Counted from the first letter of the stretch, positions 46,237 through 64,000 are shown. The stretch: DNA of 64,000 bases from an uncultured Verrucomicrobiae bacterium (GCA_963769025.1 CAVYKI010000003.1:1317822-1381821), one strand, 5' to 3'. Notes: a model not told the origin generated them from the sequence alone. Numbers and translations: made by a program.

Positions 46237-47589
46237 CTACCGGTTGCGATACGCCCGCGCGAGCAGCGTGATGGGGTGCACGATCTCAAGGTCGGCACCG
46301 CGGGCCCGCACGCCGGCTTCGAGCTGCACCGAGCAGCCGGGATTCCCGTTCGCGACACACTTCGCGCCGGTCTTTGCGATGTTGGCCATCTTGCGGTCGA
46401 GCAGCTTTGCGGACATCTCCGGCTGCGTGATGTTGTAAACGCCCGCGCTCCCGCAGCACCACGAGGACTCGGGCAACTCGACGAGCTTCAGGCCGGGGAT
46501 CAATTTTAGAAGTTCGCGCGGCTGTCTCGTGATTTTCTGCCCGTGGCAAAGGTGGCAGCTCTCGTGGTAGGTGACGGTTTGCTCCGCGCCTGCGCCGGTT
46601 GGCTTCACCGTGCCGATCGCAGCGAGAAATTCGTGCACATCCTTCACCTTCGCCGCCCACTTCCGCGCGCGCTCCGCGTAAAGCGGGTCGTTGTGCAGCA
46701 GGTGGTCGTAGTGCTTCAGATGCGAGCCGCAACCGCCGGCGTTGGTGATGATGGCGTCGAGATCTCCGAGCGATCCCGCGCTGCGTTCCATGGCATCGAT
46801 GTTGCGCCGCGCCATGTCGCGCGCGGTGTCCACCTCGCCGTTGTGCCCGTGCAGCGAGCCGCAGCAGTGCTGCATGCGCGGCGTGATGACTTCGCAGCCG
46901 TTGGCGAGCAGCACGTCCACCGTGTCGCGGTTTACGCTGGAATACGTGAGGTCCTGCACGCAGCCGGTGAGCATGCCCACGCGCTTCCGGGCGCCGGGCT
47001 CTGGCGTCTCGACCTCGGCGATGAGGGCGTCGGAAAAATCCGCCTCCACGCGAGGTGTGAGCGGCTCCAGTTCGCGGATGTTTTTCGGCAGCAGCCGCAG
47101 CAGCCCGAGCTTGCGCACGAGCTTCTCCAATCCGCTCGCCTGGTAGATCCGCAGCGCCCTGCCGATGGCCCGCAGCAGCCACGGCCGCGTGAAGACTCCG
47201 CGGAGCATGATGCTGCGGATCCAGTTCCGCTTTTCCGTGTTGAGGATGCCCGCGCGCTCGATGTCCGCGCGTGCCTCCTCAAACATGCGCGTGTAATCCA
47301 CGCCCGCGGGGCACGCGGTTTCGCACGCGAGGCAGCCGAGGCAGAAATACATCTCGTCGCCAAACGCCTCGGTGATATCGAGCCGGCCCTCGGCGACATT
47401 CCGCATGAGCTGGATGCGCCCGCGCGGGCTGTTTTTCTCCAGCTTCGTCGCGTCGTAGGTCGGGCAGGTCGGCAGGCACAGCCCGCAATGGATGCATTGC
47501 GAGAGCACCCCGAAATCGAGGTCCTTCAGGTAAACCGGTTTCGCGCCGGGCGAGGGCGGGAGCGGCGTTTCAATGGTCGGCGCGTGCAT
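46237..47589 (-). CDS. glcF: Glycolate oxidase Fe-S subunit
   Basis: CIHCGLCLPTCP, CLGCLACETACP, two CCG motifs. Confidence 0.88.
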   Translation of the reverse strand: MHAPTIETPLPPSPGAKPVYLKDLDFGVLSQCIHCGLCLPTCPTYDATKLEKNSPRGRIQLMRNVAEGRLDITEAFGDEMYFCLGCLACETACPAGVDYTRMFEEARADIERAGILNTEKRNWIRSIMLRGVFTRPWLLRAIGRALRIYQASGLEKLVRKLGLLRLLPKNIRELEPLTPRVEADFSDALIAEVETPEPGARKRVGMLTGCVQDLTYSSVNRDTVDVLLANGCEVITPRMQHCCGSLHGHNGEVDTARDMARRNIDAMERSAGSLGDLDAIITNAGGCGSHLKHYDHLLHNDPLYAERARKWAAKVKDVHEFLAAIGTVKPTGAGAEQTVTYHESCHLCHGQKITRQPRELLKLIPGLKLVELPESSWCCGSAGVYNITQPEMSAKLLDRKMANIAKTGAKCVANGNPGCSVQLEAGVRARGADLEIVHPITLLARAYRNR

Positions 47590-47599
47590 AAGGGGCGAC

Positions 47600-48973
47600 T
47601 CAGTCGAAAATTTTCCCCGGATTCAGGATGCCGAGCGGGTCGAGCGTGTGCTTGAGTTGCTTCATCAGGTTGAGGCTGGCGTTCCCGATGGCTCGCGGGA
47701 GAAACGGCTTCTTCGCGAGGCCGACGCCGTGTTCGCCGGTGATGGTGCCGCCGAGGCTCACGGCGTAGTCGAAGATTTCCTGCATCGCGAGTTCGACGCG
47801 CGTCATCTCGGCCGTGTTCTTTTCGTCGGTGAGGAAGGTGGGGTGGAGGTTGCCGTCGCCCATGTGACCGAACGTGCCGATCTTCAGGTTGTGCCGCGCG
47901 CCGACCTCCTGGATGAAGCGGATCATCTTCGACAGTTCGCTGCGCGGGACGGTGGCGTCTTCGAGAATCGTCGTCGGCGACATGCGCGCGAGCGCGCTGA
48001 ATGCCGAGCGGCGCGCGCTGGCGAGGCGGATGGATTCCTCGGGCGTCTGCGCGATCTGCACGTCGGTGGCGCCGCACTTTCTCGCGATTTCGACCATCTG
48101 CGCCGCCTGATCCTCGACGGCGGCGGCGTGGCCGTCGGTCTCCATGAGCAGGATCGCCTCGGCATCGAGCGGGAGGCCGATTTTTGCGAAGTCCTCGACG
48201 CACTTGATCGTGATCTTGTCGAGGAACTCCAGCGTGCAGGGGATGATCTTCGCCGCGATGATCGCCGAGACAGTGTCGCTCGCGCTGTCCATGCGGGCAA
48301 AGGTCGCGAGCATCGTCTTTTTCGCTGCGGGCTTCGGCACGAGTTTGAGGAGGACCTTCGTGATGAGCCCGAGCGTGCCTTCGCTGCCGACGAAGATGTC
48401 CTTCATCGAATACCCGGCGACGTCCTTCACGCATTTGTTGCCGAGCCAGACGACGGTGCCGTCGGCGAGCACGACTTCCATGCCCATCACGTAGTCGCGA
48501 GTGATGCCGTACTTCAGCCCGCGCAGGCCGCCGCTGTTTTCGGCGACGTTGCCGCCGATGGTCGAGATTTTCATCGAGCCCGGATCGGGCGGGTAGAGCA
48601 GGCCCACGCTGTCGGCGAGGTCGGTGACCTTCTGCGTGATGACGCCGGCCTCGACGAGGATCGTGAGATTTTTTTCGTCGAGTTCGATCACCTTGTCCAT
48701 CTGCGCCGTGCAAAGGACGATGCACCCGGCGGACGGCACGCTGCCGCCGGAGAGCCCGGTACCGCTGCCGCGCCCGACGATGGCGATGCGGTTCGCCGCC
48801 GCGTACTTCACGATGGCGACGATTTCCTCGGTGGTCCTCACCATCACCACGACCGCCGGCACGCCGCTGATCGCCGCGGTGCCGTCGTAGCCGTAGGAAA
48901 GCAGGTGCTCGCGGGAATGGAGGACGCGCGCGGGTTCGAGAAGGGGAGTCAGGTCGGCGACGAGATTCGGCAT
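47600..48973 (-). CDS. glcD: FAD-linked glycolate/D-lactate oxidase subunit
   Basis: GSGTGLSGG, PPDPGS, GSEGTLG, GHMGDGNLH, GEHGVG, LNPGKI. Confidence 0.9.
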   Translation of the reverse strand: MPNLVADLTPLLEPARVLHSREHLLSYGYDGTAAISGVPAVVVMVRTTEEIVAIVKYAAANRIAIVGRGSGTGLSGGSVPSAGCIVLCTAQMDKVIELDEKNLTILVEAGVITQKVTDLADSVGLLYPPDPGSMKISTIGGNVAENSGGLRGLKYGITRDYVMGMEVVLADGTVVWLGNKCVKDVAGYSMKDIFVGSEGTLGLITKVLLKLVPKPAAKKTMLATFARMDSASDTVSAIIAAKIIPCTLEFLDKITIKCVEDFAKIGLPLDAEAILLMETDGHAAAVEDQAAQMVEIARKCGATDVQIAQTPEESIRLASARRSAFSALARMSPTTILEDATVPRSELSKMIRFIQEVGARHNLKIGTFGHMGDGNLHPTFLTDEKNTAEMTRVELAMQEIFDYAVSLGGTITGEHGVGLAKKPFLPRAIGNASLNLMKQLKHTLDPLGILNPGKIFD

Positions 48974-49169
48974 GGCGTGAGCCTTGTTAAGTGGCATCCG
49001 TGGGGCAGGGCAAACCGTATCCTTTCACGTTTCGCCGTGGAAATGAAGGTCTTCCTCTCTTGCGCCCCCGCGTCATGGCGGCCTCTGTCCGTTCGCGCGC
49101 GTGCGTCGCCCATTTTGGCGTCGATCACGGTGCGAAATTCGGCACGCATGGTGCTGATGTGTTAACCGT

Positions 49170-49658
49170 ATGTCTGTCCGACCGATTCATGCCGTCGTGC
49201 CTTCCGAGGCGACGGGGGTTCCGGCCTTTGCCCGGAAAATGTCTGCCTTGCGCAGGCGGAAGGGATTGATCGGCCTTGCGCTGACGGAGGTGCTCGTGGG
49301 CATCGGCATCATCACGCTCACCTCGGCGACGGCGCTCTGGGCGCTCGGTGCTGCGAACCGGCTGGCGACCGTGAATCGGAATTTCACCGGCGCAAAAACG
49401 CTGATCCAAAACAAAATCGATGAAGTGCTGTCCATCCCGTATCCGTCGAGCACGGTGCCGCCGGTGCTCAACGCGGGATCCGTAAACGAACTCGTGACCG
49501 TCAATCCCGGCCCTCCGGCCATCACGGGAACGATGACAACGAACGTCCAGTTGACCGATCCCGCGCTCAACCTCCGGGAGGTCAAAATCACCGTGGCCTA
49601 CCCGTACAACGGCACGGTCTATTCGCTGTCGATGGCGACGGTGCGCTCACCCGACTAG
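49170..49658 (+). CDS. Minor pilin/pseudopilin (PilV-like)
   Basis: Class III signal G|LALTEVLV then hydrophobic helix; start may be 49239. Confidence 0.7.
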   Translation: MSVRPIHAVVPSEATGVPAFARKMSALRRRKGLIGLALTEVLVGIGIITLTSATALWALGAANRLATVNRNFTGAKTLIQNKIDEVLSIPYPSSTVPPVLNAGSVNELVTVNPGPPAITGTMTTNVQLTDPALNLREVKITVAYPYNGTVYSLSMATVRSPD

Positions 49659-49661
49659 CCC

Positions 49662-50564
49662 ATGCTCCGCAGTCTTTCCCGATTCCGCCGCGGCTTTACG
49701 ATCGTCGAAATGGCGATCGCCGCCGCATGTGTCGTCATCGCGGGCGGCACCGCCTTTGTGTTCCTCCAGTCGGCCACGACGCTTTTCCTGAGCGGCCACG
49801 CGGCCAACCGCTCGAACCAGCTCGCGTACCTGACGATGGACCGCCTGGCGCGCGACGTGCATTCGTCCATCGAGACCCCGGCGCTGGTGGATGCGGATGG
49901 CGCGACGATCACGCTGACGGGCTCCGCGCCGGTGAGCGCGGCGGGCATCCGGTTCCGGATCTATGCGGGCGGACCTTTCCAGATTCCGGCCGCGACGGCG
50001 GCCGAAGCGACGATCGTCGTCGCCAACACCCTGGCAAGTCCGCAGATGCCGAGGGCGGGGCAGCTCCTCGCGATTCCCTCGGTGCCGGTGAATGGCATTC
50101 CGCAGGACCTGTTCGCGAGAGTGGCCACGGTCGGTGCGCCGGGAGCGGCGACCACCGTCACGCTCACCGGGACGCTCGGCAGCTTTGCAAATCCGACGGT
50201 GACCTCCGGTCCGTTCGTTGCGGCAAATACGCTGGCGCACGTGGTGAATGACGTCGCCTACATCGTCGCGCCATCCGCGTCGTCGGGGATTCCCGAGCTG
50301 CGCTTTTACCCGCGCGCGATGAGCGTGGCTGCGAACGGCGGCGCGGCCTTCAATGATCCCGCCAACTTCGCCGTCGTGACCGTGAACATGGCGGCTTCCC
50401 CGCAGCCATTTTCGATGGCGCTCGGGGACAAAGGCGTGGGGATGAATCTCACCGTGCAGGACACCGAGCACTCGAACCGGGTCCAGAGCGGCTTCATGAA
50501 GAACTTCAGCATCGGAACCCCCGGAACCCCGGTGCGGATTTTCCCGCGGTCCATCGGCCTATGA
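49662..50564 (+). CDS. Minor pilin/pseudopilin (PilW-like)
   Basis: RRG|FTIVEMAI N-methylation motif. Confidence 0.8.
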   Translation: MLRSLSRFRRGFTIVEMAIAAACVVIAGGTAFVFLQSATTLFLSGHAANRSNQLAYLTMDRLARDVHSSIETPALVDADGATITLTGSAPVSAAGIRFRIYAGGPFQIPAATAAEATIVVANTLASPQMPRAGQLLAIPSVPVNGIPQDLFARVATVGAPGAATTVTLTGTLGSFANPTVTSGPFVAANTLAHVVNDVAYIVAPSASSGIPELRFYPRAMSVAANGGAAFNDPANFAVVTVNMAASPQPFSMALGDKGVGMNLTVQDTEHSNRVQSGFMKNFSIGTPGTPVRIFPRSIGL

Positions 50565-52486
50565 AATCCCACCGTCCCGGCATTCACCGTTCGCAGCGGG
50601 GCAGTGTGCTCATCACCGCCATGGCGGTCGTCATTGTCGTCGGCGTCGCGGTGGGCGCGGCGCTTTCGCTCTCCTCGAATGTGGCGCGCAACTCCTACCG
50701 CTCGCGTCAGCGTGCGGCGGCGGAAAGCGTGGCCGATGGTTCGCTGGAGGTGATGTATGGGAAATGGTGCGCCGCGGGACGGGCTGCGATTCAGGGCAAC
50801 CAGGGGCTGCCGACGACGGCGGACCTCGCCGCGATCTCCGGCACCGCCAACGCGCCCGGGCCCGGGAGCAGTCCGCCGTACGCGGATTTTGCGGGCTACA
50901 CCTTCACGTCGTACACCCTCGAGGCGCTCGATGCGGCGGGCGTCCCGGTGGGCACCGGCGTGCCGGCCAGCACGTTGATCCCGGTGGCCGGGCGGCCCGG
51001 TTGGATGTCGCGCGCGTACAACTATCTCGCGCGGGCGACGGTGAATGTGCCGGTCGTCGGCGGGACCGAGAACGTCGCCGTGGGGCGCCGTTTTCAAAAG
51101 GCGGATGCGCCGATTTTCCAGTCGGCGATCTTCTTCGAGGGGGCGCTGGAGATTCACCCCGGGCCGGACATGAACATCACCGGCCTCGTGCATACCAATA
51201 CCGACCTGTACGCGAGCACAAGCGGCTCGAACCTCACTTTCAGCCGCAACGTTTCGTTCGGCTCCTCCTACAGCGAGGGCGTGGCGCCCGGGGACTCGCG
51301 GACGACGCTCACGGTCGCGCCAAACTACCCCGGCGGGAAAAGCTCGCAGCTCAACAAAGTGGATCGCATGGAGCCGCTGGGGATCGATCCGGCGACGGCC
51401 TTCAACACGACGGACGCGAACCCGAACAACGACAACTTCCGCGAACTGATCGAGCGTCCGGGCGCCGGATTCACCGACCCGCCGGAGATCGCGAACCTTC
51501 GCTTTTACAACCAGGCGGGGCTGAAAGTCCTCCTCGATACGAGCCGGGCCGCGGCCGATCCGCTGCGCGTGCGGGTTTACAATGGCCGGGGCGTCGAACT
51601 CACGCCGGCGGGCGGCGCGTCCGTGGTGAACGTGCTCAACGCGGTGAAGGCCGCCGTGAGCGCGGGCGAAGTCATCCGCGACAACCGCGAGACGAACAAC
51701 GTGCTCCTCACGAGCTTCGACATGTCGCAGCTCTCCAACATCATCACGCAATTCGCCACGCTCTCGCCTCCTTCCAGCGGGAACCTCACCAGCCAGGCCG
51801 TCAACACGTACAACAAGGTCATCTACATCGCCGACGTGAGCGCCGACCCGAATGGCGGCACTTCCGCCGTGGACGCCACGGCCGCGCAGGCGGAAAAGGC
51901 CGTGCGTCTCCGCAACGGCGCGATCCTTCCCGACGACGTGACGGTGGCTTCGGAAAATCCCGTTTACATCCAGGGCGATTACAACAGCGGCGGGCCGACG
52001 GCCTCGGTCGTTTCCAATGCCGCCAACTCCACCAGCCCGCTCTCCGCCTTTGAAGATCCCACCGCGCCCGGCTACACGCGGAAGGCGTGCGCGGTGCTCG
52101 GCGACGCGGTGAACATCCTCTCGAACAACTGGAATGACGGGAACTCGACGGCCAGCGTCGCCTCCCGCGTCGCGACGAACACGACGGTCAACGCGGGCAT
52201 CCTCTCCGGAAACGTCCCGACGAACCACTACGGCGACGGCGCATACAGCGGCGGCGCCGAGAACTTCCCCCGCTTCCTGGAGACTTGGAGCGCGCAGTGC
52301 CTCACCTATTACGGCTCGATGGTCTGCCTCTTCGACAGCAAGCAGGCCAACGGCGCGTGGGGGGCGAGCAACGTGTACAGCCCGCCGACCCGCCGGTGGT
52401 ACTTCGACCAGAATTTCCTCCTGAATCCGCCGCCCGGCACCTTGCAATCCACGACCTATTCACGCGGGCGCTGGGTGCGTTACTGA
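50561..52486 (+). CDS. Large PilX/GspK-like pilin with extended C-terminal domain
   Basis: QRG|SVLIT without Glu5; C-terminal GGAENFPRFLETW, YSPPTRRWYFD. Confidence 0.75.
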   Translation: MKSHRPGIHRSQRGSVLITAMAVVIVVGVAVGAALSLSSNVARNSYRSRQRAAAESVADGSLEVMYGKWCAAGRAAIQGNQGLPTTADLAAISGTANAPGPGSSPPYADFAGYTFTSYTLEALDAAGVPVGTGVPASTLIPVAGRPGWMSRAYNYLARATVNVPVVGGTENVAVGRRFQKADAPIFQSAIFFEGALEIHPGPDMNITGLVHTNTDLYASTSGSNLTFSRNVSFGSSYSEGVAPGDSRTTLTVAPNYPGGKSSQLNKVDRMEPLGIDPATAFNTTDANPNNDNFRELIERPGAGFTDPPEIANLRFYNQAGLKVLLDTSRAAADPLRVRVYNGRGVELTPAGGASVVNVLNAVKAAVSAGEVIRDNRETNNVLLTSFDMSQLSNIITQFATLSPPSSGNLTSQAVNTYNKVIYIADVSADPNGGTSAVDATAAQAEKAVRLRNGAILPDDVTVASENPVYIQGDYNSGGPTASVVSNAANSTSPLSAFEDPTAPGYTRKACAVLGDAVNILSNNWNDGNSTASVASRVATNTTVNAGILSGNVPTNHYGDGAYSGGAENFPRFLETWSAQCLTYYGSMVCLFDSKQANGAWGASNVYSPPTRRWYFDQNFLLNPPPGTLQSTTYSRGRWVRY

Positions 52487-52501
52487 GTCGCCGCCATCCG
52501 G

Positions 52502-53098
52502 ATGAATCCCGCACGTCGCACCGTGAAAATCGCACTGGCCGCGCTCCTGGGCGCGTCGCTCGCGCTGCCTGCGCGGGCGATGGTCGAGTTTGTGCCCGAG
52601 TTCGTCACCACGAAGCTGGAGGACGGATTCCAGAATCTGGAAGTCATGCTCCGGGACGGAAGTTCGCGCGTCATCTATTGCCCGCCGGCCGGCTGGAAGG
52701 CGGAGCCCGGCGCGCGCTACCTGCGGTTTTACCCGCCCGGCGCGTCGCAGGCGGATCTCATGATCGAGGCGGACAAGGCGCCCGCCGGCCGGGTGCTGGA
52801 TGCGGCCGCAGCCGAGGATTGCCGCGCGCGGCTGAAGTCTTCGCTTCCCCGCGAAAGTTCCAACGTCGTCGTGGAGGCGGACGAGTCGAATCCCGGCCTG
52901 GTCGCGAACTGCCCGACCTTCGGCACGACCGTGGCCTACACGAGCGGCGGCGCGCGCTATCGCAAGCGGACCCTCTTCGTCTTCGCGCACGATTCCGAGA
53001 TCCGCTTCAGCTTCGTCGCGCGCATCGCGGACTTCGACCGCCTCTACCCCGCGGTGCGCCGGAGCCTGTTTTCCTGGCGCTGGGAAAAGGCGCGGTGA
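52502..53098 (+). CDS. Secreted hypothetical protein
   Basis: Signal peptide ending ARA; 15 bp after the pilin genes. Confidence 0.65.
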   Translation: MNPARRTVKIALAALLGASLALPARAMVEFVPEFVTTKLEDGFQNLEVMLRDGSSRVIYCPPAGWKAEPGARYLRFYPPGASQADLMIEADKAPAGRVLDAAAAEDCRARLKSSLPRESSNVVVEADESNPGLVANCPTFGTTVAYTSGGARYRKRTLFVFAHDSEIRFSFVARIADFDRLYPAVRRSLFSWRWEKAR

Positions 53099-53152
53099 CC
53101 GGCGCGGCGCGCGCACTTGCGCACGCCGGGCAAATGCGGCATCGAAGCGGCG

Positions 53153-54280
53153 ATGAACGACAGCCGCCGCATCGAAGTGAACCTCGGCCCGCGCAGCTAT
53201 TCCGTGCTGATCGGCAGCGGATTGCTCGCCGGGCTCGGCACGCTTTTGCGCGCGGAAGGCCTCCGGCAGGCCGACGCATTCGTCATCACGAACCAGGACG
53301 TCGGCGCGCATTACTTCGGGACCGTGCGCGCGTCGCTTGAGGCGGCCGGCTTCGCCCGGATCGTCCGGCACGACATCCGCGTGGGCGAGGAAGGCAAGAA
53401 CTGGGACGAATTCACGAAGACCTGCGGCGCGCTGCTTGAGAATTTCCCGGATGCCGGGTCCGCGCCGCTCGTGCTGCTGCTCGGCGGCGGCGTGGTCGGC
53501 GACCTCGGCGGGTTCGCGGCCGCGGTGTTCCGGCGCGGCGTGCCGTTCGTCCAGATCCCCACCACGCTCCTCTCGGCGGTGGATTCGAGCGTGGGCGGGA
53601 AGGTCGCCGTCAATTTCGGCGGCGTGAAAAACATCATGGGCGCATTCAGCCAGCCGCGCCTCGTCGTGTGCGACCTCGACACGCTGGGCACGCTCGGCCC
53701 GCGCGAGATTCGCAGCGGCATGGCGGAGGTCATCAAATACGGCGCGGTGTGCTCGGCGGAACTTTTCGCGAAGCTCGAACACGGCGCGCTGGAAAGGCTC
53801 CTCGCCCTCGACCGCGCGGTCCTCGCCGACATCGTCGCGCAATGCGTCCGGCTGAAGGCCGACGTCGTCGAGCAGGACGAGCACGACAGGCTCGGCATCC
53901 GCAACGTCCTCAACTTCGGCCACACCGTCGGCCACGCGCTCGAGCTTTCCGCCGACTACACGCTCACGCACGGCGAAGCCATCGCCATCGGCATGGTCGC
54001 CGCCACGCGCATGGCCGTGCGGCTCGGCACCGTCGGCGCGGAATTCCAGGAGCGGCTCCTCGCGCTGCTCGGGCGCGCCGGCCTGCCGCTCAGCTTCCGG
54101 GGCGAAGGCGATGCCCCGGCGCTCTTCGACCGCATCCTCCGCGCCCTGCAGATGGACAAGAAATTCCGCGACGGGCGGAACCTCTTCGTCCTCCCCACCG
54201 GCATCGGCTCCTGGGCCCCGCACGGCAACGTGGACTGGGCGCTCGTCCACGACTGCGTCCGCTCCGTCCTCGCGGAATAA
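53153..54280 (+). CDS. aroB: 3-dehydroquinate synthase
   Basis: GGGVVGDLGGF, PTTLLSAVDSSVGGK, LNFGHTVGHALE, HGEAIAIG, DKK. Confidence 0.96.
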   Translation: MNDSRRIEVNLGPRSYSVLIGSGLLAGLGTLLRAEGLRQADAFVITNQDVGAHYFGTVRASLEAAGFARIVRHDIRVGEEGKNWDEFTKTCGALLENFPDAGSAPLVLLLGGGVVGDLGGFAAAVFRRGVPFVQIPTTLLSAVDSSVGGKVAVNFGGVKNIMGAFSQPRLVVCDLDTLGTLGPREIRSGMAEVIKYGAVCSAELFAKLEHGALERLLALDRAVLADIVAQCVRLKADVVEQDEHDRLGIRNVLNFGHTVGHALELSADYTLTHGEAIAIGMVAATRMAVRLGTVGAEFQERLLALLGRAGLPLSFRGEGDAPALFDRILRALQMDKKFRDGRNLFVLPTGIGSWAPHGNVDWALVHDCVRSVLAE

Positions 54281-54471
54281 TCAGTCCGGCCCCTTTCACA
54301 AAAACCAAGTGCTAACCAACGCACGCATATCAGCCGACTAACCGCAGGGGACCAGACACCCGCCTGACTCGCCGCCCCACTTCCCCGGCCACGGTTCCCA
54401 GCCCTTCAAGCAACGTTACTTCCACCAAGTAATGAAGAATCCCCTTTTTCCTCTTGCCAACAAGACAGCCA

Positions 54472-54595
54472 TATCAACGACCCCAAGCTCAGCGACGGCG
54501 GAGGCTGGCGCGGCCCGTGCATGGCGGGTGGAAAGGCGGCGGCGGAAGCACGGGCCGTGACAGCCGGAGCCGTTCGCTGCAGCGCATGGTTAGGC
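54472..54595 (-). repeat. Integron attC site 1
   Basis: Minus strand: GCCTAAC (RYYYAAC)...GCTGCAGCGAAC...GCTGAGCT..GTT, about 120 bp; upstream ORF stops in TAAC. Confidence 0.8.
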
Positions 54596-54973
54596 GTTAA
54601 GGTTGGTATTTGATTCGCCTGTTTCTTGACTGCGAACTGGCGTCCGGGAAAGGGAGTGGAGCACTCCGATTGCACAAAGCGAGAAGTGCCACCGAAGGCC
54701 GAGCGATTTTGTAGAAGGGCGTCTCCTGAACTCGAAGTAGATGCCGACGGCGTCCGGCAGTCGCGGTCGACCAACGACTACGCACCGGTCGATGAGTGCA
54801 CGCCTGCGCGAAGTTGGGACGACCACGAGCGGCGGCAAAGGCAAGAAGTCACACCAACGACTGCACCGGTGATTGTCAGCGAACGAGACTGCTGAACACG
54901 AATCGTGACGGCGTACCAGCACACAGAGAAACAAGAGCAATGCAATGGCTAGGACTAGTGCTTTCGGATTCAT
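54590..54973 (-). CDS. Gene-cassette ORF, small membrane protein (possibly frameshifted)
   Basis: Fills the space between the two attC sites; ATG 14 bp after the GTT; hydrophobic N-terminus. Confidence 0.55.
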   Translation of the reverse strand: MNPKALVLAIALLLFLCVLVRRHDSCSAVSFADNHRCSRWCDFLPLPPLVVVPTSRRRALIDRCVVVGRPRLPDAVGIYFEFRRRPSTKSLGLRWHFSLCAIGVLHSLSRTPVRSQETGESNTNLNA

Positions 54974-54982
54974 AGAATAGCG

Positions 54983-55131
54983 CCTGAACGACCCCAAGCT
55001 CAGCGACCGCGGAGTGCGGCGCGGTAGCTGCATGGCGGGCGGAAAGGCGGCGGCGGAAGCAGGCGGCGTGACGCACGGAGCGAGTTCGCTGCAGCGCAGC
55101 CGGAGCCGTTCGCTGCAGCGTCTGTTTGGGT
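54983..55131 (-). repeat. Integron attC site 2 (composite)
   Basis: Shares AACGACCCCAAGCTCAGCGAC and GGAAAGGCGGCGGCGGAAGCA with site 1; GTTCGCTGCAGCG arm duplicated. Confidence 0.78.
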
Positions 55132-55290
55132 ATCCGCAGAACTTACGTAAGTCTGCGATTTCATAGAGCGTTACGCGATACATGGAATTTGGTGGTAGCG
55201 CAAGATTCCGTTAATTCACCGGGCGATTTGCATGGAATTTGTCTGGAAAGCCGCCTCAATCACAGAGGAGACGGGGAGCGGATGGGGACG

Positions 55291-56482
55291 CTAAGGTTTG
55301 CTGAGTTTTCGGAGTTCTGCAACTAGCCCGTCCTTGTGCTGTACACGTCTGATTTCCGCAAAAGGTAGTGAGCGATGTAGTGGCAATTCGGACAGAGCGT
55401 GATCAGGTCTTCAGCCCTGTTTTCTCCGGCTGCTTCCGTTCGCTCAACGGATCCAAGTGGTGGGCCTGCACAATCTGATCGTCGTAATGAAACTCACAGG
55501 CGACACAAGTGAAGCGATCTCGCTTCTTGGCGCTAAGAACCAACTTGCCGCTTCGCCGGAGTCGGTACCCTGCATCTCCATCCTCTCGCCCTCCAGTTCT
55601 CCGGCGTCTTCTTCATCCCGGAGTTCTGCCATCACGGACGCCGTGCGCTGGTCTCGCTTAGTATTCTTCCCGATCCATAATGGCTTTACATCCTCTAAAT
55701 AGAAGAACCAGCGGCGCTTCCTGTCGGAATCGTCTGTCACTCCATGGTAGTCGTAGAGTTTTTCCCGGATACGGCCGATCCGACGTTCTCGATCCAGGAT
55801 TCCCTCCTCGGCGATGACGTGGGCGAATACGGATACGATTTGCGTCTTATGATTTTCGGAAACAATGGCCTCGTATCGATCCGGAGAAGCCAGATGAAGA
55901 AGATATATGATAGATGCTGCATTTGTTTTCCGTGAAGAACTCAGACTCGGAGTCAATCTCGCCGTAGATCGCGTCGTAGGCCAGCGTCTCGATCATGAGT
56001 TTCGCTTCTTCCACGGTCTTGAGAGTGGGATTCTCCGCCACGACTTTGAAAATTCGGCAGATGGAGAGAATTTCGTGGTACTCATTTGTCAAGTGCCACA
56101 TTCCAGGATTGGCGATAGTGTGTTCCCCACTGAAGAAGTATCGGGTTCCTGAAACAATCTCGCGATCCGCGAACCAGCGTAGAGCATAGGAACGTTTTAC
56201 TTCACCCGAAATACTGCGAACTGGCATGCACCAGAGATATTCCAAGTTGGCAAACAAACGCTTCGTGTTTGAGGCCGCGCCTTGAAACTGTTGTTCCGCT
56301 TTCTCGTCAAATGACGCTTTAGACACATCGAAACCTTCGACAAACCTCGACTGGATCTCGTCGAAAGCGGCAGTGAAGTCGAGCGGCTCGTTGCTAACGG
56401 TGATGTAGCTCCTGTGATCGATAACGACGCTCTGCAGGAACTCGTCAAACACTCGGTAGGAATGATACTTCTGCCAGTTCAC
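55291..56482 (-). pseudogene. HNH endonuclease with McrB-N-terminal-like domain (several frameshifts)
   Basis: LLHLASPDRYEAIVSENHK; frames missing from the ORF track give FTCVAC...QAHHLDP...DLITLCPNCH. Confidence 0.7.
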
Positions 56483-56581
56483 AGGTTAAGGAGTTCTAGG
56501 TCCGGCAATGAATCGCGCGCCGAAATGCTCACGTGGCCATCACGCTGGAAACGAAACATGCAAAGGGCCTCCGCGCATTTA

Positions 56582-58270
56582 TCACTCACTTTCGACGGAA
56601 ACCGTGATGCAGCCATCGGGCAACTCACTGCCATCTGGCAAAGTCAGTCTCGAAAATAAGGCTTTCAGGCGCTCGACCTTCTGCGAGCGCTGGGAATGTG
56701 CACAGAAATACAAGTCGGTTCCCGGAACCTGAGTATAGCTGTAGGGTCTGTTCTGCGCGTTATTCATAAAGTCCGATGCCGGATTCGTTGACAGCGGAAA
56801 TCTCACAATTGGCATCTCCATCAGCTGATCCCGCATCGGCTTTTTAAACGTATCAAGAAGAAGTTTCAGAAGCTCAACAATCGTATCGGTATCATTGTTC
56901 TTTCTAATTGTTTGTTCCGGCCTATCGATGTCGAGAGCACCCCAATCGATCACCACCTTTATCCCCTCCCTTCCACCGTTTCGGTCTTCTTGCGACTCGC
57001 CGTATGGTTCATCCGGAAAAAGGTCACCGGTGGGAACGCGAGCATCAGCATAGATACGAGCAATATAGTCCTGAAAGTGTTGGGTCAGGTTCTGTAAGCC
57101 GGCGCGATTCACGTGGCATTCGGGACAAATTAAAACACCATTCTTGAGAGTCGTTTCTCCTCCGGCGGTATGCTCAAGGATATGGTGAATCGTCGCATCA
57201 CGGAATGCAACTCGGCGGTCCGGTCTTGAGCATCTAGGATTCTGGCATAGCCCTCGATCACGATTCCAAATCACCTCGCGCTCCAGTGAATCGAAAAGAC
57301 GATTAGGGTCCCGCAAAACAAACCTAATTTTCGGGTAAATTTCGGACAGCATGAATGAGTGCCTGATGCGAATTATCTCGGCGGTATCTGAGCCTGATCC
57401 GGACAGGAGCCGACCGAACCGCTCATGGTGAGGAAGCGATTCACGGTTTTCCCTGTGATGCAACCGCGCTGCTGCAACCTCCTGCTTGAAAGCAAGAAAG
57501 GCATCCACAACAGTCTCCTTCCATTCGTTGGTATAATTACCCTGATCAAGCGTATCCACCAGCATCGCAAAATGAAATGCCATCTGGAATGAAATGGGAC
57601 CAGCCTCCTTCAGGCTACTGAACTTCGGAAGAGCAACAACCCGATCAAGCAGATCAACAACTCGCTTCGCGCCCGGGTCGTCGAGAGGAAGATCAAGATT
57701 ATCGAGGTAGAAGTCATTGATCGTTTTGCCCTTGAGGTCGACAAAATCGATCTCCGAGCGCTCCCGAAGCATGACGGTCATCGCCAATCCCGCGAAGAAT
57801 TTGCGCATTTCGGCATGGCCGTCGACGTAGTGCTCCCCATCAGCCACTGTGAGTCGCTTGGCGCTGGCTTTCTTGAACTGATTAAAGAACGCTTTGGGGT
57901 GTGAAAGCCGATGGCCAGGCTTGCCGGCGTGTTGAATCACAAAGTTTGTGAAATCACCGGGCCAGGCGTCTCGCTTTTCTTGTGCTGTCAATGGAGTGCC
58001 CGCCTGCAAACGAATGAAAAGGTCTCTTACTTCATTCCGCTCTGCGGTGATCTCTACGACGAGCAATTCGTGATTAAGAAGTCTGTTTCGGTCTTCATGT
58101 TCGAGTTCTTGAAACTTCTTTCCGGTCCATGCTGGAAGGAGCGACGCATCGACCGGAACGATAGTGCCCGGTCGTGCTCTTTTGGGATCAGGCAAGGAAA
58201 ACTCATTCTGAGAGTAGGCTACGATTGAGGCGAGCCGCTGCTGTCCATCCACTAACACAGCGCGCTGGGA
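56582..58270 (-). pseudogene. 5'-truncated DUF262-HNH protein (GmrSD-like) with extra C-terminal domain
   Basis: VDGQQRL, LFIRLQAGTPL; HNH CQNPRC...IHHI...GGETTLKNGVLICPECH; DUF262 N-terminus absent. Confidence 0.8.
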
Positions 58271-58284
58271 TGAAAAGTTCGACG

Positions 58285-58948
58285 TCATCCTCGCCAATCC
58301 GGCACATCCACAGTGCAGCCCGAGCCGTGTGCAGCCAGTATCAGTTCCTTTGCGATCTCGTAGAACATCTCTCGCGTGGGAACGCCATGCGACGTCTCAT
58401 CACCGCTCGCGCCTTGCAGGCAGTAATATACTGGCAGCCAGCCTGGAAGTGCATCAGGAGCCAGGAGCTGTTTGAGCACTGACGTTTTGCCCACACGTCG
58501 AACACCATCGAGAATGAGCACCGTGCCGGGGCCGGTTGGTCGCAGTGAGCGGCGGATTTCGTCGAGCACATCGTTGCGACCAAAAAACAGATCGCGATCG
58601 CGTGCGGAAAGTGAAGTGCCAGTGATGTATGGCGAGACATCAAGCCGTCTCGATTTCACCTCTGTGCTGAGAGATTGCACATCCACAGCCAGCTCAAAGT
58701 TTCCACTGCAGGGCTGTTCGTCGAGCCGGACCGCCTTCCACGCGAAGTGGAAGATTTTCTGCCCTACAATTTCCGGCGTCCACAAATGCGGCCACTGGTT
58801 CGTTCCCTGCGCTGGTAGCAGAGGCCACGGGCGTGTCGCTGACGCCCCGGCGCCACTCGGCAGATCGAGCGTCACTCGTTTTAGAGGCAGCGGACCTGCG
58901 TTTCGCACGGTCACTGTGAGTTCCACAGGTTTGCCTACGGTTTCCGCG
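58285..58948 (-). pseudogene. STAND-type ATPase fragment (Ig-like domain + Walker A)
   Basis: SPYITG, FFGRND, GVRRVGKTS. Confidence 0.78.
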
Positions 58949-59619
58949 AACTGATCCATCGCCACGAAAAGGTTTCGGCGATTCTCACCGGTTCACAGTT
59001 GATGAAGACGCTCCGGCGTGAGTATTTCCATCCGCTCTTCGGCATCGGCAAGGCGATACCAATCGGCGCCCTGGACCGTCCGTCGGCTCAGCTTCTCGTG
59101 ACGCGCCCGGTTGAGGGAACCCTGACTTTTTCTGACGCCGCCCGCGATGCCATCGTGGATCTGTGCGGCTGCCAGCCGTTTCTAATCCAGCACCTTTGCA
59201 GCGCAGTCTTCGACATTGCTGCTCGCGATGGACTCGAGAGCCTCACGACGGAGCACGTTGAACAAGCGGTTACAAAGTGGCTGGAGCGCGATCAGCATTT
59301 CGCCATCGTCCTGAAAAGCGACGTAGATGATCCACGTCGGCAATGCGTGCTCTTCGTCATCGCCGAATTGGAGCGCCGAGGCGTCGCGGTCACTTTCGAG
59401 ATTTTACGCGATGCGCTCGAAGAACGCGGATTGGCCGGCGACGCGGAGCTGACGAATCATCTTCAATACCTCGCCGACGCCACGGTCGTGAGCTGTGAAG
59501 GAACGGATGATCTCAAGGTCTATCGCATCACGATTCCTCTGCTTGCGCGCTGGCTTGCCCGGCAGGATGCCGCGCTCTACCTCGCCCGTGCGCAACGGTT
59601 TGACGAAGGACGACTATGA
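58942..59619 (+). pseudogene. STAND-type ATPase C-terminal fragment
   Basis: FRELIHRHEKVSAILTGS, HPLFG, CGCQPFLIQHLC, winged-helix-like end; no Walker A or B. Confidence 0.7.
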
Positions 59620-61181
59620 GTGAAACCGCCTATCAAGTCTTCGGTTCGGGCCGACCGGCGTTGCTCGGTCGCGCTTCCGAAGTAGCGTCAATTCGCCGCC
59701 AGTGGCAAAACACCAGCATCAACGTCATTGGGCCGAAATTCTACGGAAAGACGGCAATGTTGCGACATCTCTCCGGCCTCGCCGGGCAGGATGGATTCGA
59801 CGATGTGGTTTATTGGAACGTTCGCGACCAGGTGCCGGAAACGCGCGCGCAATTCTTTGAACTGCTTCATGGGCTCATGAGCAAGCAGACGAAAAATGCC
59901 TCCGCCATGCTCGGCGAACCAAAGGAAGAAGACGGGTATTATCAGGAAATCAAAGACGCCGTGGAGGAGATGCAGAAGGACGAACAGCGCCTGCTCATCA
60001 TCATGCAATCTGTCGATGAGTTGCTGCTCCGTGGCGACAACATCAGCCCGAATCTTTGGGACAACCTCGCCCACTTTGCCGGTCAATGTGGTGTGCGTTT
60101 TGTCCTCAGCAGTAGGAAGAAGCTGATTGACTTGGTGCCATCCGAGAGCGCGAAGCTGTCCGACTTCTGGCGCAAGTTTGGGCATATTGAGCCGCTTGGA
60201 GCGTTCGATGAGCGCGATTGGGACGCTGTGATCTCTCCGCTCACCGCCCGCGGAATCTCGCTCGATACGAGCGCGCGCAAGGAACTCGTGAATTGGACTG
60301 GTGGCATTCCACCGCTCGCCATCGGGCTCTGCGCCAAGCTCGACGATAATTCGGATGGAGCGAGGCTCGGGAAAGCCGAGGTAGATAGTGCGGCGAAGGC
60401 GCTCGACCGCCGCTACCTCGATGAGTTGTGGAAGGACTTGCCCGCTGATGTGCGAGAGCGTCTCAGCGAGCTTGCGGACAAGAAGAGTTTGCCGCGAAGC
60501 CAATGCGACATCGCGCTTGCCGATGAACTCCAATCGCGCGCGCTTGCGGATGAAGACCACGGTCACTTCAAGCTCACCAGCCGACTGCTAATGGAGCACG
60601 CTCAGCGGGTCGGCAGCGTGCTACCGGAAATGCGGAGGCTGTTCGGCACTGCGGAAGTGTATCTGCCGAACGTGCGGCGCGTCATTGAGATGCGAATCGC
60701 ACAAACCGCTAGTCTGCATCCTGACATCAAATCGCACTTCAACGCCATCCTTCAGCAACTCGACGATCCCGATGCTGCGATGAAAATGCTGTGCGGCATC
60801 TACGACCGCTGTGCTGACCTGGTCATCAAATTGGATTTTCCGGAAGGCAAGATCGATGGAAGCTGGGTGAGCGACTGGGAAGCGCGCGGAAAATTGCGAC
60901 CAGAAAACCGCGATGTGGACGGCGAGATGCTTAAAGGAAGGGTCCCTAGCCATCGCGGTGCGCGGATGAAACTGCTTGGTCTTCTGCGCGACGACAAAAT
61001 ACTCGGCACCTCCAAGGCGAGGTCATCCACGCTCTGCCTGCTAAACGGTCTGCTCGATACTTCGAACTATTGCCGCCACGCCTTCGAGGTAGGTGAGACG
61101 GTGCCGCTTTCATTCGCGTGCGCGGCGTTATTCTCCGCGCTCGAACTCTGCGGGCAGCTCTCCGAGGATTTGAGGAAATAA
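59616..61181 (+). CDS. P-loop NTPase, STAND-like, degenerate Walker B
   Basis: LLGR, GPKFYGKT, LLIIMQSVD, TGGIPP; ATGA-coupled to the upstream gene. Confidence 0.75.
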   Translation: MSETAYQVFGSGRPALLGRASEVASIRRQWQNTSINVIGPKFYGKTAMLRHLSGLAGQDGFDDVVYWNVRDQVPETRAQFFELLHGLMSKQTKNASAMLGEPKEEDGYYQEIKDAVEEMQKDEQRLLIIMQSVDELLLRGDNISPNLWDNLAHFAGQCGVRFVLSSRKKLIDLVPSESAKLSDFWRKFGHIEPLGAFDERDWDAVISPLTARGISLDTSARKELVNWTGGIPPLAIGLCAKLDDNSDGARLGKAEVDSAAKALDRRYLDELWKDLPADVRERLSELADKKSLPRSQCDIALADELQSRALADEDHGHFKLTSRLLMEHAQRVGSVLPEMRRLFGTAEVYLPNVRRVIEMRIAQTASLHPDIKSHFNAILQQLDDPDAAMKMLCGIYDRCADLVIKLDFPEGKIDGSWVSDWEARGKLRPENRDVDGEMLKGRVPSHRGARMKLLGLLRDDKILGTSKARSSTLCLLNGLLDTSNYCRHAFEVGETVPLSFACAALFSALELCGQLSEDLRK

Positions 61182-61243
61182 CGGCCCACGACCATGAGCT
61201 TCGGCGAGGGCGAAGCTGCCGGAAAATAACTTTCGACGAAATT

Positions 61244-62138
61244 CTACGGCTTCACGATCCGCTTGATGCCGTCGGCGCAGCGCGACCTTGAAACCATACA
61301 GGCACTCGACGGTGACGAAGACGCGATTGCTCTGCGTCTCGGTGTAGCGCAGGTAGCCGAACGTGAGGCCGGTCTCGGGATCGGTGACGGCACCGGCTTC
61401 GTCGTATTCGGCGGCGGGCACCAGGTAGCGCATGGCGACGGCGAGGCCGCTCGGGTGCGCGGCGAAGCCGATGAGCTTCTCGCCGTTCTCCGGCAGGATC
61501 ACCGTCTCGTGCAGATCGAAGCCGGCGAGGCGGCGGATCTGCGCCTCGACGATGCCAGGCTGCGCGACCTGCGGGACGAAGCCTTTCGCGACGACATCAT
61601 CGCCGAGCAGATTCGTGTAGTAGGCGCCGTCGAGAATCAGCGCGCGGTCGGTGACGGGCATCTTCACGGCGCTGCACGCCTCACGGATCGCGAGGAGCTT
61701 TTTGTAGTCGAACGCGCTGGCCGCGAGCGCGGGGATGACGGGCGCGCCGTAGTTCGCCGCCGTGATCTCGCTGAAGATGTCCTGCAACACGTCCTGCGCG
61801 AGCTGCTTCACCGCGGCGGAGACGAGCGTGTCGAGCACGTTGAACGCGGTCTCGCTGGCCTCGCGCGCCGTGAGATGCACGGTCTTGAACTTGTGCCGCG
61901 TGAGCTGCACCGGGATCACGCTCACGGTCGAGTCGGCGTTCGCGGTGTAGTTGCCGGCGAAGTCGCTCGATTGCGTCGGCGTGCCGACGAACGGGACGCG
62001 CACGGTGTCGAGCTTCTCCGCCGGATCGGGCGAGAAGTTGGTGGAGAAGGCGCGCATCGGCGTGAGCGCGGCCGTGAACGGCTGGAGCGCGCGCTGGGCG
62101 ACCTTGATGTCTTGGACGTTGGTGAGCGTGTTGGGCAT
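61244..62138 (-). CDS. Phage major capsid protein, probable HK97 fold (frameshift near 61280)
   Basis: FSTNFS..DTVRVP, RALIL, RLAGFDLHE, AHPSGLAVAMR, TDPETGLTF, ECLYG; true end GIKRIVKP* at 61244. Confidence 0.78.
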
Positions 62139-62150
62139 GACGAGGTGCGG

Positions 62151-62523
62151 TTACTGAGCTTTGAGGATGGCGGCGCGCTGCTCGGCGGTGAGCGAGCGCC
62201 AGAACGCGGTTTGCGCGCGCGGGATCGGTGATGGCGGCGAAACGGGAGGCGAGTGCTTCCGCAGAGTCGTCGTCGCTCGGCGCATCCGTGGCCGGCGATT
62301 CTGTGACGGGCATCGAGCGCTCGGTGGCGTGCTGCGCGGCGGCGCGTGCAAATTCGCCGGGCGTCATGCAAACGAGGCCCTCGGCTTTGGCGAGGGCGCG
62401 CACGGCATCGACCAGGCGACTGTCGGCGGATTCGCCGAGCGTGAGTGGAGCGGTGAAACGCGGCTGCTCCTGCGCGGGCAAAAGAGCGACGACTGCGGCG
62501 AGACGGCTTTCGAGTGAGATCAT
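62151..62523 (-). CDS. Putative capsid scaffolding protein (frameshift near 62215)
   Basis: Acidic linker then LASRFAAITDP/QTAFWRSLTAEQRAAIL*; 12 bp before the capsid gene. Confidence 0.5.
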
Positions 62524-63091
62524 TGCCCATCCTCCGCTGTCAAATCGTTGGCTCCGCCGATCAGCACACTCGCCAGTTCCAGCGGCGGTTTGTCGCTCGT
62601 GCCATCGCTCGCCCACAGCAGACGAGTCGCGATGCTCTCGGCGCTCTCCACGGCCAGCCGCGCCTCGATGACCGAAGGGTGCGCGATCCTTGGACGACAT
62701 CACCGGCTCGGCCACTTCGCGGCGGCGGGCGTGCTCGGCGCGCAAAGCCTCCAGGGCACGGTCCATCGCGGGTCGGATGATGCGGGCGGCCTCCGCGCTG
62801 ATGCGTCCGCGCAGCGCCGCGCAGGCCCGCCGCAACGTGGCGTAGCGCGTGCCGGTCAGATCCGCGTCGGCGGTCACGAGCAACTTCTGCTCAGTCTCGG
62901 CGGTCGGATTGTCGAGGAACGCGGTGAACGCGGCTTGCTGCTCTTCGGCGACACGCGCGGCGGCGTGCTGGCGTTCGCGATTCGCTCCAGTGCTCCCATT
63001 GCTTCTGCAGGCGATGAACGGCGGCGATGTCGTCCTCGCTCAGCAGCGGGACGTTCAGGGCTTTGGTCAGGGACAGGAATTCGATGTGCAT
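62520..63091 (-). CDS. Helical hypothetical protein of the element (two frameshifts)
   Basis: MHIEFL...AFLDNPTAETEQKLL...ARLAVESAESIA...DGQ* pieced across frames; ATGA overlap downstream. Confidence 0.5.
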
Positions 63092-63111
63092 GGCGGTTTC
63101 GGGTTCGAGGT

Positions 63112-63342
63112 TCAGAGCATCGGGTTCACCGCGGGCGCGGCCTTGCGCGACGGCAGGCGCTTGAGTTCGGCCACTCGTTGCGCAAGGAAGAGCGGCTGCG
63201 GCGTGCCGCCCACGTCGAGCGTGGCGTCGGCCAGGAGTTCGGCGTCGCGCATTCGCAGGAGCAGCGTGTTGCGGGAGCGGCCCGAGAGTTCGCCGAGGCG
63301 GTGGAGCGTGACGTAGGCGGGTTTGTTGGTCGGTGTGGTCAT
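63112..63342 (-). CDS. Small putative HTH protein (AlpA/Xis-like)
   Basis: 76 aa, YVTLHRLGELSGRSRNTL; GAGGAG RBS upstream. Confidence 0.55.
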   Translation of the reverse strand: MTTPTNKPAYVTLHRLGELSGRSRNTLLLRMRDAELLADATLDVGGTPQPLFLAQRVAELKRLPSRKAAPAVNPML

Positions 63343-63537
63343 GGCGTTTTGCTCCTCGCGCTCGTGTCAACGCGAAGCACCGCCGCCCGACGGACCCGCG
63401 GCGAGAAAGTCGTGCCGGAACGACTTTCGCCATTCCGCGCCCTCGCTCATGGCGCGATGAACGGCAGTCCTGGCATCAAAACCCGGTGTCGCGAGCCTCG
63501 TTCAGCCTGCGTCTCCTGCACCACGATGCACCGTGCG

Positions 63538-63664
63538 GAAAATGGGACGCTTGGGACGCTTTTTCAGAACTCCCCCATGCACGTGTGCCTGCGCATGTGC
63601 GCGTCCGCGCCCGCGCGCGCCTAGCGCGTAGGTTCCAAAACGCCGTCCCAAGCGTCCCATTTTC
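63538..63664. repeat. Perfect 21-bp inverted repeat with tandem heptamers (origin-like)
   Basis: GAAAATGGGACGCTTGGGACG (63538-63558) and CGTCCCAAGCGTCCCATTTTC (63644-63664). Confidence 0.85.
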
Positions 63665-64000
63665 AACGTCGTTCATCTCCATGCAGGTGACAGGATGGGC
63701 CAAACGGCGGACGTGATCTTTCGAGCCGACGAATCGCCCCACGCTTTGGCCCATCCCTTCACACCCAGCATTTCCGGCAGCGCACGACGAAAAACGTCAC
63801 CGCCAGCGCCACGACGCGAGGTGTAAAGCGCGTGACGAAAAACGGGGTCACTTTACACCTGCTCTGCACCGCGATGAAGTGCCGCTGAAAGCCCGCGAAG
63901 TAAGCGTTTATCAGGCTTTGGAGGCCACGAAGGGCGCTGCGGAAGGGGATGATGGCCGTGAAAAAAGTGGGAAGTGAAAAAACAGCTTCCTCATAAGAAA

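Follow-up and report, generated by a model that had tools for sequence, protein, structure and literature searches.

A capsid and scaffold unit without portal or terminase genes in Chthoniobacterales: a candidate satellite-like module beside defence cargo

What is a major capsid gene doing in a bacterial genome when no portal, terminase, head-completion or tail gene stands beside it? The question is raised by the right-hand end of a 64,000-nucleotide stretch of DNA from an uncultured Verrucomicrobiae bacterium (GCA_963769025.1, CAVYKI010000003.1:1317822-1381821, which is G000:C3:1317822-1381821 under the handles used here for genomes, contigs and, below, loci); this whole stretch is called the window. 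Four genes on its minus strand, referred to together as the unit, encode a helix-turn-helix (HTH)-like protein, a helical protein (hel), a short scaffold-like protein and a major capsid protein. A reading of the window made from the sequence alone had suggested a satellite that supplies only scaffold and capsid, to the detriment of a helper phage. At the level of the bacterial family this suggestion gains support, since the unit recurs, its capsids form a single clade, its genes are under selection, cargo lies beside it and in some loci it is linked to integrase or primase genes; it fares worse in the window itself, where the copy is frame-broken and the assembly has no helper-type prophage. 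In the view that we favor, and hold with evenly divided confidence, the unit serves a satellite-like integrative element as its capsid-morphogenesis module, and this element exploits lambda-like phages of Chthoniobacterales.

The unit and its relatives

In the window, the unit is headed by a conserved non-coding leader of about 0.66 kb (63343..64000, minus strand), which is truncated by the contig end, position 64000 being the last base of contig C3. The first gene encodes the HTH-like protein (76 aa; 63342->63112, minus strand) and is an intact open reading frame (ORF). It is followed on the same strand by hel (63091->62520; 189 aa in intact copies), whose reading frame is broken at 62986 and 62681, by the scaffold-like gene (62523->62151; 123 aa in intact copies), broken at 62224, and by the capsid gene, which belongs to a 297-aa family, was recognized with a PHROG profile, extends from 62138 to a TAG at 61246-61244 and has an extra base at 61277. 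The compact four-gene operon that had been described from the sequence is therefore present with all of its members, although three of the four are frame-broken as assembled. The distance of 62 bp between the capsid stop and the convergent ATPase gene was likewise recovered, with the ATPase ORF ending at 61181 and the spacer of 62 nt occupying 61182-61243. The capsid-scaffold module measures about 2.8 kb, and its DNA homology with other copies ends at 61244.

The putative identity of the capsid protein is drawn from profile matches and synteny. The window protein matches PHROG 283, 'major head protein', at E 3.6e-25 and PHROG 267 at E 4e-12, with no Pfam match at E 0.01, and its homolog in locus L016 matches a major head protein profile at E 2.9e-27. 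It has 663 relatives at E <= 0.001; the best 120 of these 663 are 77-94% identical to it, are mostly 297 aa long and include proteins from Chthoniobacter flavus and from Chthoniobacteraceae metagenome-assembled genomes. The nearest ESM-Atlas clusters, in which Phage_capsid_4/2 and P22 coat appear on 14-20% of members, are taken as a lead only.

A scan of species-representative genomes gave 80 capsid loci, which we divided by what lies upstream of the capsid. Class A (50 loci) has a portal and/or protease gene there; class B (12 loci: L003-L010, L012, L013, L078 and L081) has hel, scaffold and capsid without portal or protease, usually together with the HTH gene and leader; the remaining 18 have too little upstream sequence to be classed, four of them having capsids 96-98% identical to the window's and no tail genes downstream. 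L016, a class A locus in a complete genome, has a portal (PHROG 21), an S49-type head protease (PHROG 53), a 162-aa scaffold, the capsid and a tape measure, and the class A set on G001:C26 also holds terS (PHROG 57), a gpA-type TerL and a lambda-type portal. Head-tail or tape-measure matches were found in 37/37 class A loci with at least 2 kb downstream, and head-tail or tail matches in 0/12 class B loci, 8/12 of which have at least 2 kb downstream. In the examined flanks of the class B loci (12/12), there was no match to a portal, protease, TerL, head-tail or tape-measure protein. A place in the head operon, after portal, protease and scaffold and before the head-tail genes, is thus true of the class A homologs and not of the clade to which the window's capsid belongs. 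The four-gene order seen in the window recurs in 12/80 loci without portal or terminase in the flanks, and homologs are not restricted to full head operons, which make up 50/80 loci and leave these 12/80 outside them.

The boundaries of the unit are sharp. Window positions 63980..61244 align at 74-93% to L003-L010, L012, L013 and L078, and every alignment ends at the capsid stop; the other end falls at about 63980-64000 in L006-L010 and L078, and the remaining loci start further in. The flanks of class B units vary by locus, homology among these loci being confined to the same 2.8 kb, and the leader side of the unit in the other loci is occupied by host genes or by integrase or primase genes, never by head genes. 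The unit capsids also have a single origin. In a capsid tree of 63 rows, those of class B (11 rows) group together in a single clade (100/100), which lies within the capsids of complete lambda-like phages; they are about 80% identical to their counterparts in complete lambda-like prophages from this family of bacteria. Judged from these sequences, the capsid appears to have been captured once from lambda-like phages of Chthoniobacterales.

All four unit genes are under purifying selection, the median dN/dS among six intact units being 0.09 for the capsid, 0.19 for the scaffold, 0.21 for the HTH-like gene and 0.26 for hel. Among the 151 genomes of the family, hel is present in 15, spread over 6 of 29 genera, and the capsid in 39. 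Three units, their contexts differing, occur in G001 (= G146), along with three class A capsids.

The scaffold of the unit is chimeric. When 8 class B scaffolds are aligned with 3 of class A, the short protein proves to have its C-terminal ~35 residues in common with the 162-180-aa coiled-coil scaffolds of class A phages, with F, A, I, P, Q, T, F, W, R, L and Q invariant in the last 35, and its N-terminal part of about 55 residues is unrelated to phage scaffolds. The hel family comprises 77 clusters, all of about 189 aa, and its members are predicted to be all-helical (model pLDDT 82). The HTH-like protein of the window is 99% identical to that of L004 and 96% identical to those of L006 and L007. 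An ESM-Atlas lead from hel to Psu of P4 scored 0.81, which is below the trust level of that tool, and Psu is not among the fold matches listed.

A scan of metagenomes with the hel profile returned 7 loci only, most of them short. In three metagenome contigs (L198, L200 and L201), an in-frame fusion of hel residues 1-90 with tape-measure residues 264-526 comes after the HTH gene, and a terS-like gene lies divergent upstream. The fusion looks like a deletion that joined the unit to a phage tail module.

Mobility genes, ends and rival explanations

In some loci the unit is linked to genes for integration and replication. On G001:C26 it is preceded by an integrase, a 247-aa gene, a Prim-Pol/DUF5906 primase (PHROG 1156, E 1.7e-47), further genes, IS66 and an Hsp70/TPR pair. 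L193 presents a frame-broken integrase, a DUF5906 protein (45% to the G001:C26 primase) and a 142-aa homolog, followed by the leader, HTH gene, hel and scaffold, with the capsid lost. In L199 a homolog of the 247-aa gene and an AAA_25 helicase-like protein stand before hel and scaffold, and in L013 an integrase alone is directly upstream of the unit. The unit-linked type of integrase also occurs in class A prophages, where it is 75-86% identical in the catalytic part.

The leader is conserved in 7-8 loci, and other loci extend about 80 nt past the point at which the window contig ends. The repeat upstream of the operon, which the sequence-only reading had called origin-like, is present in the form of an imperfect inverted repeat with 60-nt arms (63511-63570 / 63632-63691), each of which contains GGGACGCTTGGGAC; the arms and motif are kept in 7/7 aligned copies, with one compensatory change in L010. 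A hairpin with the arms GGTGTAAAG...CTTTACACC lies at 63819-63828 / 63851-63860. No Rfam family was found in 54000-64000, leader included, and no sigma-70-like promoter in 60900-64000.

If the unit is indeed the morphogenesis module of a satellite-like element, its operation could be pictured as follows. A related phage, induced or infecting, would supply the gpA-type terminase, the lambda-type portal, the S49 protease and the tails, and the unit operon would then be turned on. The unit capsid and the short scaffold, probably aided by the helical protein, could join or compete in procapsid assembly, so that the resulting capsids would fit a small element and phage yield would drop. The phage machinery would then package the element and spread it together with its cargo. 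Induction, co-assembly, size redirection, packaging and interference are all steps that we infer.

A number of observations weigh against a satellite-like element. In the neighborhood of the unit, genes for integrase and replication are missing from most loci: there is no integrase in the examined flanks of L007-L010, and no primase, helicase or replication initiator in the window or in loci other than G001:C26, L193 and L199. The leader adjoins host genes in L008 and L009 and an AraC/PAS-type regulator in L010, where a close relative shows host trmD to come next after the unit with no more than a PIN gene intervening, and in the window the cargo is followed by aroB. Phage early genes or terS come after the cargo in four loci (L006/G001:C26, L007, L009/G002:C109 and L012), with TerL and portal as well in L006/G001:C26 and L009/G002:C109, and the unit could therefore be the end module of a phage genome. 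No tRNA was found beside any of the 8 scanned loci or in the window, nor were att direct repeats, inverted repeats or a target duplication found at L010, where the close relative G170 fixes the right junction only. The outermost ~110 nt of the unit, mostly missing in the window, are 77-80% like the ends of phage replication blocks on G000:C12 and G001:C26, and this sequence may represent an attachment arm or end sequence common to the unit and phages.

Viral sequence collections, in which a search for circular forms had been suggested as a check, yielded no hel-bearing (class B) element in the shape of a small or circular contig: a hel scan of IMG/VR gave zero matches, and a capsid scan gave two class-B-like loci, both provirus-type pieces, one of which is the L009 region. 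The proteins themselves also leave room for doubt. The capsid model, built from 26 close sequences, reached a pLDDT of only 41.6, which leaves the HK97 fold a putative one, and a profile search of PDB sequences with the capsid found no relative. Hel has no informative PDB neighbor (Foldseek best E 0.11, VIA-align best Z 7.2, generic helical matches), and 23/24 members give a weak, sub-threshold match to DUF6918. The earlier label of HTH agrees with a pattern in the sequence of the first protein, though that protein has zero matches in Pfam, PHROG, NCBIfam or the PDB. Finally, the window copy carries four frameshifts, and none of the class A-type genes for TerL, portal, head protease, scaffold or tail is present in its assembly.

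The phage genes beyond the cargo raise the possibility, which we consider unlikely, that the unit is no element in its own right but accessory to a temperate phage, at one end of whose genome it would form, for instance, a moron or superinfection-exclusion cassette by the attachment site, and that it is left as a stump after prophage deletion. On G001:C26, the early genes for amidoligase, ligase and DUF6011 come after the unit and its cargo, and then terS, TerL, portal, protease, scaffold and a second capsid; on G002:C109 the unit lies beside host kinase genes, and behind it stand these early genes together with terS, TerL and portal. The same early genes follow the cargo in L007, and L012 has terS 1.4 kb after the capsid. 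The resemblance of the outer ~110 nt to replication-block ends and the entry of the L009 region as a provirus in IMG/VR are consistent with such a module, as is the hel-tape-measure fusion of L198, L200 and L201, which implies that both parts were once in one genome and in the same direction. However, the downstream phage parts in G001 and G002 have no tail genes and break into host or metal-resistance genes, and host genes lie on the far side of the cargo in L010 and the window (the L008 contig ends 1.1 kb after the capsid). The hel and HTH genes were found in 0/50 class A loci within 10 kb, hel in G001 matched at the three units only, and two 80%-identical capsid genes in one phage would be unusual; moreover, integrase and primase/helicase genes directly precede the unit in L193 and L199. 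It could also be, though we offer this tentatively and think it doubtful, that the unit is a minimal, integrase-less 'capsid cassette', which would use the recombination and packaging of related lambda-like phages through the common end sequence, form hybrid, smaller or dead-end shells through co-assembly of its near-identical capsid and truncated scaffold with phage proteins, and carry defence genes at the capsid stop. In that event, mobile element, defence system and vehicle for other defence systems would be united in one small module in Verrucomicrobiota.

Somewhat less probable still is an anti-phage cassette kept by the host in its defence islands, in which a decoy capsid and a truncated scaffold would poison phage assembly and which would spread by recombination and not by packaging of its own. 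The surroundings of the unit would suit this function, with restriction-modification (R-M), PIN toxin, ATPase and nuclease genes beside it in 10/10 loci with downstream sequence, as would its strong purifying selection, the lack of integrase or replication genes in most loci and its presence in assemblies without a class A capsid (G000, G005/G148 and G092). To judge from sequence, a capsid about 80% like those of phages and a conserved scaffold C-terminus may be close enough to co-assemble with phage proteins. On the other hand, no PADLOC defence model matches any of the four unit proteins, and the integrase and primase of the fuller loci speak for a mobile element; interference is also a satellite behavior, so that this explanation overlaps with the satellite-like element. 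We regard it as improbable that the unit is only an inert leftover of a decayed prophage, functionless here and in the family. The same boundaries in 12 loci, the single capsid clade, dN/dS values of 0.09-0.26 in intact copies (and of 0.03 for the window capsid against L004) and up to three intact copies in one genome all argue against decay as a general explanation, even if it would account for the four frameshifts of the window copy, the four indels in the neighboring HNH gene, the ATPase split across strands, the truncated capsid of L078 and the lost capsid of L193, and would agree with the many capsid fragments scattered in family genomes and the absence of a helper from the assembly.

Comparison with described satellites

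Elements that interfere with the capsids of a helper phage offer the closest functional parallels to the satellite-like element that we favor. SaPI1 CpmB and the 80alpha scaffold are described as having in common a C-terminal helix-and-hook that binds the capsid protein, and CpmB as competing (PMC5644958). The 123-aa scaffold of the unit, with only its last ~35 residues in common with the 162-180-aa phage scaffolds, seems analogous to CpmB. In SaPI1, the CpmA gene adjoins CpmB, and the scaffold of the unit is likewise adjoined by a second small helical protein, hel. In contrast to SaPI1, the unit brings its own capsid gene, its proteins are without sequence relation to CpmA and CpmB, and the candidate helper is lambda-like (gpA terminase, lambda portal, S49 protease).

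A second parallel is provided by Ccm of SaPIbov5, which is reported to be a homolog of the helper capsid protein that alters capsid geometry (PMC8569155), the packaging of the helper being described as of the cos type (PMC5052747). The unit would resemble SaPIbov5 in being a satellite-type element with a homolog of the helper's capsid protein. It differs in that its capsid is about 80% identical to phage capsids and equals them in length, both of which point to a recent capture, and in that this capsid is paired with a scaffold of its own. By analogy with these two systems, the best-supported reading of its action is that the unit would work like a CpmB-type competing scaffold combined with a Ccm-type capsid homolog. 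The ~80% identical capsid and the helper-type scaffold C-terminus form a natural pair, in which small changes that redirect capsid assembly would be open to study.

In P4, an integrase, a primase/helicase, a regulator and capsid-morphogenesis genes are laid out with a defence hotspot beside them. The unit is similar to P4-like satellites in having DUF5906/Prim-Pol primases before it (in G001 and L193) and a defence hotspot by its morphogenesis genes, and dissimilar in having a capsid gene and in the lack of the integrase/primase part from most loci. To our knowledge, P4 itself has Sid and Psu and is without a capsid gene. Capsid-forming phage-inducible chromosomal islands (cf-PICIs) are described as encoding their own capsid protein and all proteins for capsids and packaging (bioRxiv 10.1101/2022.09.08.507074). 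The unit does not belong to the cf-PICIs, since genes for portal, protease, terminase and adaptors are missing from it; in 12/12 loci, portal, protease, terminase and head-tail genes are absent from the unit and from the 10 kb around it.

By gene content, the nearest described kind are the mini genomes of about 8.75 kb with an HK97-fold capsid from the human gut, in which an integrase, RepA/helicase and regulators accompany the major capsid protein (MCP) and scaffold as the sole structural genes (Aguilar et al., 2026; PMC13669383). In the account given there, these genomes have no terminase, portal or tail genes and their MCPs are enriched in encapsulin (PMC13669383). The present unit differs from them in that its MCP is a close copy of a tailed-phage capsid, its hosts are soil and freshwater Verrucomicrobiota, its scaffold is chimeric and a cargo hotspot adjoins it. 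Marine VEIMEs are phage satellites that are also integrated in Verrucomicrobia and, as they are described, carry no capsid gene (Eppley et al., 2022; PMC9618062), whereas the unit has one. A full-text search of the literature found no capsid-bearing satellite in Verrucomicrobiota, the capsid-less marine VEIMEs being the only satellites found for the phylum. Should the view of the unit as part of a satellite hold, Verrucomicrobiota, in which very few phages have been studied, would have here their first satellite-type element that encodes a capsid of its own.

Cargo and the state of the window copy

Variable cargo starts right after the capsid stop and consists mostly of restriction, toxin or ATPase genes: a McrC-like nuclease in L004, type I R-M in L005 and L006, HerA and Dcm in L007, Dcm, HATPase and Vsr in L009, PIN toxins in L008 and L010, and an AAA_14 ATPase in L013. 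We read the position after the capsid stop as a hotspot for defence cargo. Complete phages have an insertion hotspot after the capsid too, as is indicated by the class A loci (L014-L070), in which the first head-tail gene lies anywhere from 11 to 5063 nt beyond the capsid stop. The capsid stop marks a precise cargo site, with the first gene 62 nt on in the window, and could serve as an anchor when new defence genes are sought in these bacteria.

In the window, the cargo island covers 55370..61181 and has a lower G+C content of 50-59%. Counted from the unit, domain searches identified an AAA/STAND-like ATPase of 521 aa (59616-61181, plus strand), an ATPase C-terminal piece of 206 aa (58999-59619, plus strand), an ATPase N-terminal piece of 226 aa with the Walker A motif (58285-58965, minus strand) and a DUF262(GmrSD_N)+HNH protein of 571 aa (56582-58297, minus strand). 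The latter was the only cargo protein matched by PADLOC (NsnA, E 3.3e-12). Last comes a frame-broken HNH nuclease gene (56482->55370, minus strand), which differs from its intact 397-aa homolog in G066:C60 (L192) by four frameshifting indels, namely one-base deletions in short T/C runs at 55339, 55409 and 55577 and an insertion at 55903; over 1.4 kb of the same alignment, the DUF262+HNH gene has no indel. The two ATPase halves, on opposite strands, diverge from about 58980, and the split gene as a whole (58285-59619) points to an inversion or to two truncated genes.

The condition of the window unit was assessed by comparison with four intact homologs. It has five single-base insertions and no deletions, none of them in a homopolymer; four shift a frame, at the positions given above for hel, the scaffold and the capsid, and the fifth lies in the non-coding leader at 63357. 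As a result of the insertion at 61277, the assembled capsid ORF runs on to 61128. Read in the reference frame, the capsid differs from that of L004 by 5 non-synonymous and 49 synonymous changes (dN/dS 0.03). This low ratio and the fact that all five changes are insertions outside homopolymers favor an assembly artefact or very recent breakage. Real decay is favored by the ATPase split across strands beside the unit, by the clustering of indels in the unit and the HNH gene, between which the 571-aa and 521-aa ORFs have remained open, and by a host stretch of 2.6 kb (46247-48889) without window-specific single-base indels when compared with three same-genus relatives. Contigs from four other sequencing runs do not have the five inserted bases; these come from relatives, however, and so merely repeat the comparison with homologs. 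The sequencing run behind the assembly was not found, the best share of words being 0.43. The balance between real decay and artefact is therefore close to level, and the window copy is either recently dead or locally mis-assembled.

For this genome, the finding is a modest one, a broken copy at a contig end. The statement that no portal, terminase, head-completion or tail gene follows the unit agrees with the absence of such genes from the window and the assembly, but the contig ends at position 64000, and the absence of genes to the right therefore cannot be judged in this genome. None of the other contig ends of the assembly has the missing ~80 nt, and the neighbors of aroB, compared when the DNA past the contig end was traced, differ among relatives. 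The assembly is 83% complete in 13 contigs and has one capsid gene only. The search for class A-type genes gave a match of 26-29% to an S49-type peptidase at C3:427 kb and one of 29% for a small head-tail gene on C12, and otherwise there is a degraded replication block on C12. On that contig, two copies of the ~110-nt end sequence (566874-567002 and 586961-587110) are each followed by a VSR-like gene, and after the second copy the degraded block, with DNA polymerase A fragments, extends over 587-601 kb to the contig end.

Some further features were observed in passing. Between the cargo island and aroB, two alike stretches of about 110 nt (~54480-54600 and ~54990-55110) give look-alike spurious ORF translations. 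Some 4 kb of the window (49018-53108) is without counterpart in G017:C23, where aroB abuts the homolog of 46247-49018. Several genomes of the family contain scattered short pieces of the capsid gene, which cover the C-terminal 35-50 residues at 77-94% identity, for example at G038:C27, G038:C23, G161:C11, G137:C333, G145:C225 and G076:C13. Some capsids of the class A type (78-82% to the query) are likewise followed by non-phage genes in place of head-tail genes, in L052, in L067 and at G001:C26 80800-81693, an example being the metal-resistance genes in G001.

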